DNA from: an uncultured Oscillospiraceae bacterium
GTDB taxonomy: Bacteria > Bacillota > Clostridia > Oscillospirales > Ruminococcaceae
Direction: 5' to 3'
Assembly (NCBI GenBank): GCA_964369885.1
Contig: CAYJGQ010000001.1
Span: 9,344 to 73,343 of the forward strand
DNA: 64,000 nt
Shown: one piece after another, positions 40,949 through 42,573 of the stretch
Layout of the letters: every line of letters starts with the position of its first letter
How positions within the stretch are numbered: position 1 is the first letter of the stretch
Notes under the pieces: generated by a model
What the model saw: only the letters and a program-made list of their open reading frames with translations
Told to the model about the DNA's origin: nothing
The model's database searches: none
Translations under genes and position numbers: made by a program

Positions 40949-41338
40949 ATGAAAAAAATCATCACTTTGGGATTAACGGTAGCACTTGTGTTGTCGCTTG
41001 GCGCGGCAGTTGCCACTGCATCGGCCCCCACAAAAGGCGCAAACTACACCGACACCGACGGCAACGGTATTTGTGATAACCTTGGCACCTACCCAAACTT
41101 TGTCGACCAAGATGGAGATGGCATTTGCGACAACCGTGGCTCGTATGTTGGTTATGGCAGGGGTAAGAATTGTGGTCGCTTTGTAGATGCAAACGGCGAT
41201 GGCATGAATGACAATATTGGCAGTGCAGCAGGCGGTTTTTTTGCCGATGAAAACGGTGATGGTGAGTGCGATAACCTTGGCACAAGGCAGGGTTTAGGTA
41301 AAAACCACGGCCAAGGCAGAGGAAAAAACAGAAACTAA
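40949..41338 (+). CDS. Secreted small protein with four D-x-(D/N)-G-(D/N)-G-x-(C/N)-D-N repeats
   Basis: Signal peptide (cleavage near ATASA). Repeats are DTDGNGICDN, DQDGDGICDN, DANGDGMNDN and DENGDGECDN. The tail is Gly/Lys/Arg/Asn-rich. GGAGG RBS. Confidence 0.6.
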   Translation: MKKIITLGLTVALVLSLGAAVATASAPTKGANYTDTDGNGICDNLGTYPNFVDQDGDGICDNRGSYVGYGRGKNCGRFVDANGDGMNDNIGSAAGGFFADENGDGECDNLGTRQGLGKNHGQGRGKNRN

Positions 41339-41348
41339 GGAGCCATTT

Positions 41349-41837
41349 ATGAGAACTGAGCAGGACTTAAAACTTGCCATAGAGATTTACGCAGATACCG
41401 TAAAAAGAATTTGCGTAGTTTATCTTAAAAATACGGCAGATACTGAGGATATTTTCCAAAATGTCTTTTTAAAATACTATAAAAGTTCTGCTCATTTTGA
41501 AAACGATGAGCATAAAAAAGCTTGGTTTATCCGTGTGAGCATCAACGAATGTAAAGACCTGCTTAAAAGCTTTTTTCGCAAGAATGCTATGTCTTTAGAC
41601 CAAGCTTGCGATATGCAAACACAGCCCGATTTTGACCAAAACCGATATGTCCGAGATGCTGTGCAACAACTTTCGGACAGGTATAAAATTGTGATTTATC
41701 TTCACTATTTTGAGGGTTATTCGGCGGTGGAAATCGGGAAGATCTTAAATAAAAATGTAAACACGGTTTATACCCTGCTTGCCCGTGGCCGAGAGCAGCT
41801 AAAAAATATTTTAGGAGGTAGTGAGCATGAGTGGTAA
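41349..41837 (+). CDS. ECF-type RNA polymerase sigma factor
   Basis: Region 2 (EDIFQNVFLKYY) and region 4 HTH (YSAVEIGKILNKNVNTVYTLLARGR). 162 aa. Confidence 0.85.
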   Translation: MRTEQDLKLAIEIYADTVKRICVVYLKNTADTEDIFQNVFLKYYKSSAHFENDEHKKAWFIRVSINECKDLLKSFFRKNAMSLDQACDMQTQPDFDQNRYVRDAVQQLSDRYKIVIYLHYFEGYSAVEIGKILNKNVNTVYTLLARGREQLKNILGGSEHEW

Positions 41838-42573
41838 AATTAAAAATGCTTTTGGGGAAATTCAGGCTCATGAACACCTAAAAATGCAGACCTTTGAAAA
41901 CATAACAGCAAAAAAAGCCAAAAGAACCCTACCGCTAACTGTTAAACTTGCGCCTGCCATGGCCGTGTTTGTTATGCTTATACTTGTAAACGTCTACCTC
42001 ACCCCCGTTGCTTTTATAAGCATTGACATAAATCCCTCGGTAGAATTGTCCCTCAACACCTTTGATAGGGTTATTGATGTTACCGCCGACAACAAGGACG
42101 GCGCCGCCATTATAAACTCATTAAACCTTAAGAACCTAAACTATGTTGATGCGTTAGAACTGCTTGATGACACAGAAAATTTTACCGAGTTTACCGACAG
42201 CTATACAGAAATCACCGTCATTTCAGACAACAGCACCGAGATTATTCACAATATTGAGGGTTGCGGTTTTAATCACCAAAACGTCTCCTTTCACTCGGCA
42301 AATGTAGAGCTCAAGGAGCAGGCCTTTCAAAACAACATTTCTTTTGGAAAGTATCGCGCATATTTAGAGCTTTTGGAGGTAAATCAAGACATTCATGTTG
42401 ATGAAATTGCCCATTTACCGATGAAGGTTATTCGTGAAATGATTGAAAACGATGGGGTTTTTGACCAAGCTATGCTCCCACCGGCAAACTCAAATGGCAA
42501 TGGCAACTCAGGTTCAAACAGTCAACATCAGGGAGGTGGCGGCGGTCACCAACACGGCAAAACAACCGAATAA
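41821..42573 (+). CDS. Putative anti-sigma factor (single-pass membrane protein)
   Basis: Overlaps the sigma gene stop. It has a short cytoplasmic N-terminus, one TM helix (LAPAMAVFVMLILVNVYL), an extracytoplasmic domain and a Gly/Asn/His-rich tail. Confidence 0.6.
   Translation: MSMSGKIKNAFGEIQAHEHLKMQTFENITAKKAKRTLPLTVKLAPAMAVFVMLILVNVYLTPVAFISIDINPSVELSLNTFDRVIDVTADNKDGAAIINSLNLKNLNYVDALELLDDTENFTEFTDSYTEITVISDNSTEIIHNIEGCGFNHQNVSFHSANVELKEQAFQNNISFGKYRAYLELLEVNQDIHVDEIAHLPMKVIREMIENDGVFDQAMLPPANSNGNGNSGSNSQHQGGGGGHQHGKTTE

Follow-up and report, generated by a model that had tools for sequence, protein, structure and literature searches.

Contig CAYJGQ010000001.1 of an uncultured Oscillospiraceae bacterium contains, within the 64,000-nucleotide stretch analysed here (hereafter the window), a three-gene operon at 40949-42573 that encodes a small secreted repeat peptide, an extracytoplasmic function (ECF) sigma factor and a single-pass anti-sigma factor. 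We consider it probable that this operon is a positively autoregulated, self-contained ECF module, in which the switch is thrown by RsgI-like shedding of the anti-sigma ectodomain and the peptide is the sole effector. The architecture of the module and its mode of signalling are well supported, while the ligand of the peptide, the stimulus and the feedback described below are parts that we infer.

An ECF operon with a SEAL-domain sensor

The reading of open reading frames (ORFs) places three closely packed genes on the plus strand, followed by a terminator. This agrees with an earlier note on the same DNA, which had described the peptide gene, a sigma gene 10 bp later, an overlapping single-pass anti-sigma gene and a closing terminator. 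Synteny and promoter conservation also bear out the further claim of a single conserved transcription unit of three genes behind an ECF-type promoter. The genes and the features of the sensor are as follows.

40949..41338, plus strand: lead gene, for a 129-residue secreted repeat peptide predicted to be disordered (signal peptide, residues 1-26; ribosome-binding site GGAGG at 40936-40940)
41349..41837, plus strand: ECF sigma factor, 162 residues, after a 10-nt gap (ribosome-binding site AAGGAG)
41827..42573, plus strand: single-pass anti-sigma factor, 248 residues from ATG 41827 (250 from GTG 41821)
42031..42036, plus strand: Asn69-Pro70 of the anti-sigma factor, the predicted autoproteolytic scissile bond, in a beta-hairpin (DINPS, residues 67-71)
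42490..42570, plus strand: disordered extracytoplasmic tail of the anti-sigma factor, 27 residues rich in Gly, Asn, Ser, His and Gln
42578..42611, plus strand: intrinsic terminator closing the unit, with its 12-bp stem and the T-run after it placed at 42578-42605

For the anti-sigma gene, ATG 41827 is the more likely start than 41821; it lies 8 nt after AGGAGG, and the overlap with the sigma gene is then 11 nt. The unit is flanked by a tRNA nucleotidyltransferase gene and by a short-chain dehydrogenase gene on the opposite strand.

By its domain content the sigma factor is classified as a canonical ECF factor (sigma-70 group 4) and not as a SigI-type factor. It consists only of the sigma-2 and sigma-4 regions (Pfam Sigma70_r2, 7.5e-10; Sigma70_r4_2, 3.4e-14) and scores 77.6 bits against the NCBIfam model TIGR02937 (sigma70-ECF), whose cut-off is 42.9. 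None of the named NCBIfam equivalogs reaches its cut-off for this protein (the best, PRK09415, gives 104 bits against 198), and no SigI model appears among the 25 best NCBIfam matches listed. Its best solved relatives are SigW and SigH. The operon also shows the hallmark of ECF systems, namely an overlapping cognate anti-sigma gene together with a conserved -35 element and a CGT-type -10 element in more than 30 operons, from which dependence on this sigma factor is predicted.

The only Pfam domain found in the anti-sigma factor is RsgI_M (PF23750; 4.6e-21). In the AlphaFold2 model (predicted local distance difference test, pLDDT, 81), a cytoplasmic helix (residues 4-32) and a transmembrane segment (37-58) are followed by a SEAL domain at about 61-210, a compact alpha/beta domain, and by the disordered tail (222-248; pLDDT <50). 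All of the ten best Foldseek matches are RsgI SEAL or periplasmic domains, with probability 1.00 and TM-scores of 0.51-0.79 (at least 0.61 for nine of the ten), and phmmer against the PDB finds Clostridium thermocellum RsgI1 (2.9e-8) and RsgI9 (3.1e-7). The cytoplasmic part is the single helix 4-32, and RsgI_N (PF12791) gives no match in the protein at E<=1. Because the sigma factor is a canonical ECF factor and RsgI_N is not matched, we conclude that the ectodomain is an RsgI-type SEAL domain placed on an ordinary ECF sigma factor, rather than that the pair belongs to the SigI/RsgI family.

In Bacillus subtilis, RsgI is cleaved independently of any enzyme at N97|P98, within a three-residue beta-hairpin; the fragments stay associated until they are dislodged, and RasP then cuts the stub left in the membrane (Brogan et al., doi 10.1101/2023.06.27.546760). 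The model of the window protein has a hairpin between strands 62-67 and 71-76. The solved C-terminal cleavage fragments of RsgI (8hep_B, 8u9o_B) start with PSVEL or PSVEF and align to the window protein from P70 onward (residue 72 if counted from the GTG). Since the solved fragments start at that proline, the Asn-Pro pair is the equivalent of the scissile bond. Of 29 anti-sigma orthologues, 28 have the surrounding motif, (S/G)(I/V)D(I/V)NPS(I/V/L)E; the tails of the orthologues vary in length and are always rich in Gly and in His, Arg or Gln. A site-2 protease is encoded in the same genome (Peptidase_M50, 216 bits, contig C28). The SEAL domain had been missed in the earlier note, and it is likely that its identification largely settles how the switch is triggered.

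One promoter and an apparently transferable module

Upstream of the operon, a GAAAGG...CGTG arrangement that had been called weak proved to be a real promoter at 40864-40893, TGAAAGGA-N14-TCGTGTTA, conserved at fixed spacing in all related operons examined. The elements of the promoter and leader are as follows.

40846..40863, plus strand: A/T tract ACAAAAAAATTAATTTGT upstream of the -35 element; almost every aligned promoter has a AAAAATTTTT-like tract here
40864..40871, plus strand: -35 element TGAAAGGA; the conserved form is TGAAWGGA for Clostridia and GCAAGGA for Coriobacteriia, always 14 nt away from the -10 element in an alignment of 32 related operons
40886..40893, plus strand: -10 element TCGTGTTA, position weight matrix (PWM) score 37.4 bits; the exact pattern is unique in its own genome
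40902..40917, plus strand: 5' untranslated region hairpin AAGGCA-AAAA-TGCCTT, directly downstream of the conserved (G)TGAA behind the -10 element

In the alignment, the gap-free motif AAAAATTTTT...TGAAWGGA-N14-TCGTATTA-N3-5-TGAA lies upstream of the peptide gene in 23 of 23 Clostridia operons. It is also present in four operons located through the anti-sigma protein and in two closer relatives, and five Coriobacteriia operons have the variant GCAAGGA-N14-TCGTnTT. The A/T tract is possibly an UP-element-like sequence.

We searched the whole genome (2.16 Mb in 154 contigs, 95% complete) with a PWM built from 21 relatives, leaving out the window. The runner-up to the window site reaches 11.5 bits; the mean over the genome is -49, with a standard deviation of 12. 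The exact pattern is single in this genome and in three of four relatives' genomes (2.6-3.9 Mb), and it is absent from a genome in which the peptide gene is not linked to an orthologous sigma gene. Because of this uniqueness, we predict a regulon confined to the operon, with the peptide as its only non-regulatory product. The earlier suggestion that the peptide might be the main output of the system is thereby strengthened: with a single promoter site in the genome, it is apparently the only such output. A second exact match in the remaining relative, G003, sits within a 241-aa ORF and was set aside as chance, and two matches with one mismatch in the genome of the window were discounted, being fewer than a reversed-pattern control yields.

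The leader hairpin, probably at the 5' end of the transcript, has a folding free energy of -5.4 kcal/mol compared with -0.5 for shuffled sequences. When each leader was folded singly, 15 of 22 related leaders had a hairpin at the same position with differing stems (GTCG/CGAC, GGCC/GGCC, CCCC/GGGG, AGGCA/TGCCT). RNAalifold found no consensus structure in the 5' leaders, where both stem and loop lengths vary. The hairpin may serve as a 5'-terminal stabiliser or as a regulatory element.

To describe the distribution of the module we use a synteny sample of 80 loci fetched via the peptide family. The peptide gene, an orthologous ECF sigma gene (95-217 bits) and a SEAL anti-sigma gene occur in that order at 28 of the 80 loci, in Lachnospiraceae, Oscillospiraceae and Christensenellales and in the actinobacterial genera Gordonibacter, Slackia, Raoultibacter and Olsenella. 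The same trio is found in the closer relatives L121, L122 and L124 and in L125, so that the peptide is conserved beside the ECF pair. Anti-sigma factors of the closer relatives are 44-72% identical to that of the window and form about 40 clusters, all unnamed or labelled 'hypothetical'. The genes flanking the module differ in every case compared; since the trio recurs in unrelated neighbourhoods, it behaves like a self-contained unit that can be transferred. Of 300 genomes sampled evenly from the class, only 4 contain a close orthologue of the anti-sigma factor, and none of the 10 from the same family or order does.

In the closest relative (L121, 3402-3886; peptide 71% identical), the sigma gene is split over two frames, either through a frameshift in the metagenome-assembled genome (MAG) or as a pseudogene. 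The Coriobacteriia loci L005, L010, L040, L041 and L079 carry the whole module, and SEAL domains have been reported as largely confined to Firmicutes; the occurrence in Coriobacteriia looks like transfer between gut phyla.

The lead peptide and its likely role

The peptide is as first described: 129 residues with a signal peptide, four repeats of the form D-x-(D/N)-G-(D/N)-G-x-(C/N)-D-N-x-G and a Gly-rich basic tail, all of which could be located in the translation.

41051..41086, plus strand: repeat 1, DTDGNGICDNLG, residues 35-46
41105..41140, plus strand: repeat 2, DQDGDGICDNRG, residues 53-64
41186..41221, plus strand: repeat 3, DANGDGMNDNIG, residues 80-91, with Asn at the Cys position
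41246..41281, plus strand: repeat 4, DENGDGECDNLG, residues 100-111; D100, D104, C107 and D108 are invariant in the family alignment
41282..41335, plus strand: Gly-rich basic tail TRQGLGKNHGQGRGKNRN, of a type kept across the family

The signal sequence reads as MKK, a hydrophobic helix and then ASA|P. When the complete 2.16-Mb genome is translated in all six frames, the pattern D.[DN]G[DN]G.[CN]D turns up four times, always within the peptide ORF, and is therefore not due to chance. AlphaFold2, run on a 60-sequence alignment, models a helix at residues 3-20 and leaves the peptide unstructured beyond this signal-peptide helix (mean pLDDT 55; linkers and tail <50), which predicts an intrinsically disordered chain. 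In three of the closest homologues (P0003, P0005 and P0007) the first repeat is decayed, for example to NFTSPNEKAIYKNIG, while the later ones are intact, and P0005 has an additional, fifth repeat; the number of repeats in these sequences is evidently not fixed.

A profile search shows that the peptide belongs to a very large family: it finds 5,912 representative clusters at E<=1e-3, of which 1,883 also pass E<=1e-10, and most of the proteins have 100-250 aa. Many of the homologues carry the precomputed annotation PF27309.1, which is not assigned to the closest ones (P0001-P0011). The carriers are mostly anaerobes: Clostridia, Coriobacteriia, Anaerolineae, Desulfuromonadales, Bacteroidales, Ignavibacteria, methanogens and ANME-type archaea. 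Members are built alike: they have a signal peptide, the unit (F/Y)VDxDGDG(I/V)CDN in n copies, and a tail that follows the scheme (P.R)DG(T/M/N)G...G.GRG..R, which is kept in both bacteria and archaea. In one protein (L037, 4001-4603) the tail is replaced by a C-terminal PG_binding_1 domain (1.8e-9), a fusion that places the action of the family in the cell wall.

Outside the module, the peptide gene adjoins other kinds of sensor. OmpR-type response regulator/histidine kinase pairs lie beside it at L013, L021, L032, L056, L037 and L050; a different ECF sigma factor with a zf-HC2 anti-sigma factor lies beside it in Bacteroidales (L026, L062) and about 2.2 kb downstream at L077; and an ArsR-type regulator lies beside it at four archaeal loci. 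For the two-component systems near distant family members, NCBIfam supplied only generic names, the closest being BaeS/MtrA and below cut-off, and the stimulus could not be identified from them. Because the peptide is linked to such unrelated sensor types, the genomic settings argue that it acts as a response effector or generic modulator rather than as a ligand specific to SEAL sensors.

Four orthologous operons (L092-L095) have the same promoter, sigma factor and anti-sigma factor, and in each the lead peptide is small and secreted with a Cys- or His-rich middle. These peptides contain one DGDG repeat or none (none in L092, L093 and L095; L095 is 16% His). The Gly/Arg/His tail (...RDGTGM..G.GRGG...) is retained in L092 and L093, and L094 and L095 keep only an Arg/His-rich C-terminus. 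Across orthologous operons, then, the repeats appear to be dispensable and the tail not. Cys, His and Asp together make up 15-30% of the L092-L095 peptides, compared with 9% of the proteome. Because of these Cys- and His-rich replacements and of the near-invariant Cys of the repeats, the comparison points to metal ligation rather than pure calcium binding.

The peptide tail and the disordered tail of the sensor are each about one-third Gly. Over 27 operons, the His and Arg contents of the two tails correlate (rho 0.58 and 0.57, respectively; about 0.6 after removing G+C content), and 13 sister-pair contrasts give rho 0.55 for His (p 0.05) and 0.70 for Arg (p 0.008). Overall likeness in composition was dropped as evidence, as any two proteins of one genome correlate in this respect (controls, z 2-5).

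The circuit that we propose would run as follows. The anti-sigma factor would cleave itself at N69|P70, and the two halves would remain together until the outer fragment is dislodged by a stimulus that acts on it and on its short disordered Gly/His tail. The M50 site-2 protease would then cut the membrane stub and, with cytoplasmic proteases, free the sigma factor, which would transcribe its own operon. The disordered peptide, exported by the Sec pathway, would stay in the wall space and bind divalent cations there, and it would probably compete with the sensor tail or act on it, closing a feedback loop. We propose this feedback because the peptide tail resembles the sensor tail and co-varies with it. 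The acidic loops suggest Ca2+ as the cation; transition metals seem more likely, in view of the invariant Cys and of the Cys- and His-rich sequences that stand in for the repeats in orthologous operons.

Taken further, and tentatively, the peptide and the sensor tail may be a co-evolving pair in which the peptide, as an extracellular decoy or ligand, closes feedback on a force- or ligand-gated SEAL anti-sigma factor. The DxDGDGxCDN family at large might then be a general wall-space effector, which anaerobic bacteria and archaea would have connected independently to ECF, two-component and ArsR sensors, most plausibly to buffer a metal cation. If this were true, the operon would be a minimal homeostat with one promoter and one effector.

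A rather unlikely alternative is that the peptide is itself the signal: secreted as an autoinducer or co-sensor, it would bind the ectodomain or the tail of the anti-sigma factor, either directly or through a bridging metal ion, and would trigger or tune shedding in a quorum-like positive feedback. Peptide, sigma factor and sensor do share one autoregulated promoter with no other target found in the genome promoter search, and the peptide middle is highly variable between orthologous operons while the tails co-vary, as would be seen in a cognate ligand-receptor pair. However, the same family occurs with histidine kinases, zf-HC2 anti-sigma factors and ArsR regulators, as well as at about 30 loci with no adjacent regulator. 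Both tails are basic, which makes direct binding unlikely unless an ion or polyanion bridges them, and a chain of 100-200 aa carrying as many as six repeats is large as pheromones go.

The earlier note had likened the repeats to thrombospondin type 3 (TSP3) and had suggested, as an example, a metal- or calcium-dependent signal. This likeness holds for the motif, as all four repeats have the calcium-ligand spacing DxDxDGxxD, and it fails for family models and for fold. Among Pfam models, TSP3, EF-hand, dockerin and Excalibur give no match to the window peptide at E<=1. The NCBIfam model throspo3_MtsD does match it at 7.6e-4, with 17.7 bits against a cut-off of 800, and relatives have sub-threshold matches to TSP3_bac (0.0077), EF-hand_5 (0.0037) and Excalibur (0.0079). 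Despite these traces of similarity, we think it improbable that the repeats form a folded calcium domain through which the system senses or signals calcium: AlphaFold2 gives no fold, a calcium site has no use for the near-invariant Cys, and replacement of the repeats by Cys- or His-rich sequence points to soft metals or to a role of the tail.

Several points weigh against the autoregulated module with the peptide as its effector. Autoproteolysis and intramembrane cleavage are predicted by homology, and the transcription start and the dependence on the sigma factor by conservation only. No calcium- or metal-binding family model fits the peptide, and ion binding by it is putative. The co-variation of the tails is a hint of a shared partner or of feedback and not proof, as the controls show a general correlation of composition within genomes and the contrasts comprise just 13 pairs. 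At about 30 of 79 family loci there is no regulator next to the peptide gene; the family therefore does not need a SEAL sensor. A larger regulon is also conceivable, given a genome that is 95% complete and a PWM that degenerate promoters would escape. We give little credence to the strongest form of this last point, in which the peptide is a passenger or minor target within a general cell-wall defect response like that of B. subtilis SigI, its other promoters being degenerate or in the unassembled 5%: the assembly is in 154 contigs, the search used a strict motif and RsgI-type sensors of B. subtilis are reported to respond to wall defects (PMC9732909), but the gap between 37.4 and 11.5 bits is very large, the single-site result recurs in three of four larger relatives' genomes, and the peptide gene is always first behind the promoter, in two phyla.

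Related systems and further family members

Each part of the module has known counterparts, namely ECF sigma factors, SEAL anti-sigma domains and DxDxDG-type loops. What the literature that we searched does not describe is an ECF sigma factor combined with a short-tailed SEAL sensor and a one-gene regulon for a secreted repeat peptide, in keeping with the earlier remark that the arrangement is not a well-described one.

The closest comparison is with the SigI-RsgI systems (B. subtilis RsgI; RsgI1-9 of Clostridium/Acetivibrio thermocellum), which supply the top structural matches. They share with the module a single-pass anti-sigma factor, a juxtamembrane SEAL domain with an Asn-Pro hairpin, a disordered tail after that domain and a site-2 protease gene in the genome. 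In place of a SigI-type factor, however, the module has a 162-aa canonical ECF factor (sigma-2 and sigma-4_2); its cytoplasmic part is a short single helix without an RsgI_N match, and the ectodomain ends in a 27-residue Gly/His tail rather than a carbohydrate-binding module. The predicted regulon is its own operon, led by a secreted peptide, and the module extends beyond Firmicutes to Coriobacteriia. SigW-RsiW, SigV-RsiV and RpoE-RseA resemble it in the co-transcription and overlap of an ECF sigma gene with a single-pass anti-sigma gene, in a conserved -35 and a CGT-containing -10 element before their own operon and in the expected release of sigma by regulated intramembrane proteolysis. They differ in that site-1 cleavage is predicted here to be autocatalytic, through the SEAL domain, instead of being carried out by PrsW, signal peptidase or DegS; moreover, a non-regulatory lead gene is seemingly the whole regulon here, and no NCBIfam equivalog cut-off is reached.

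Two groups of small exported proteins offer parallels for the peptide. Like CpxP, Spy and ZraP, it would be a small exported protein that is the top target of an adjacent envelope signalling system, with feedback on the sensor plausible; those proteins are unrelated to it in sequence and fold, being helical and associated with two-component systems of Proteobacteria, whereas the peptide is predicted to be disordered. SilE and PcoE are disordered periplasmic metal sponges encoded beside SilRS and PcoRS, and the ligand motifs of SilE are His/Met. The window peptide is like them in having a signal peptide, a predicted disordered chain with repeated candidate metal-ligand motifs and a gene that adjoins a sensing system, and its relatives in other phyla adjoin OmpR-type pairs as well; its putative ligands are Asp/Cys (His) rather than His/Met, and there is no homology. 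Among DxDxDG calcium loops (TSP3, bacterial TSP3 PF18884, Excalibur DxDxDGxxCE, EF-hand, dockerin), the element D-x-D/N-G-D/N-G-x-C-D fits DxDxDGxxD, and the Cys next to the loop recalls Excalibur. Unlike those families, the peptide matches none of their Pfam models at E<=1 (PF02412 and PF18884 included), has one free Cys per repeat instead of disulfide pairs, has Gly-rich linkers predicted to be disordered and belongs to a family found mostly in anaerobes.

Work on SEAL-domain autoproteolysis has until now dealt solely with SigI/RsgI pairs whose sensors respond to plant polysaccharides or to defects of the cell wall. In the present module that sensing device is coupled to an ordinary ECF sigma factor, and the compact unit has spread through gut Clostridia and into Coriobacteriia. 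With one small secreted peptide as its whole apparent output, the module is a simple system in which to ask what a short-tailed SEAL sensor detects. It also gives a first functional handle, through a defined promoter and regulator and a repeated linkage to envelope sensors, on a very large and uncharacterised family of small secreted proteins of anaerobes.

Members of this family vary widely in size and setting. In two Lachnospiraceae/Roseburia MAGs (L037, 4001-4603; L050, 3644-4552) the gene lies downstream of a two-component system and DGICDN alternates with DGVNDNCPGYGNG repeats, the C-terminal sequence of the L050 protein being similar to that of L037. Desulfuromonadales MAGs (L028, L053, L063) encode proteins of 430-470 aa with about ten alternating DGINDNF/DGICD repeats and N-termini that look, by eye, like those of lipoproteins. 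There are also multi-kilodalton repeat proteins with up to 19 matched stretches, one of which (P0189) has 3056 aa. At the archaeal loci (L014, L057, L074 and L076, from ANME/Methanosarcinales and other MAGs), the family member lies downstream of an ArsR-type helix-turn-helix gene; a small membrane protein with a Cys motif is encoded between the two at L014, L074 and L076, and a DUF2284-like metal-binding protein is encoded near the peptide at L057, L074 and L076.

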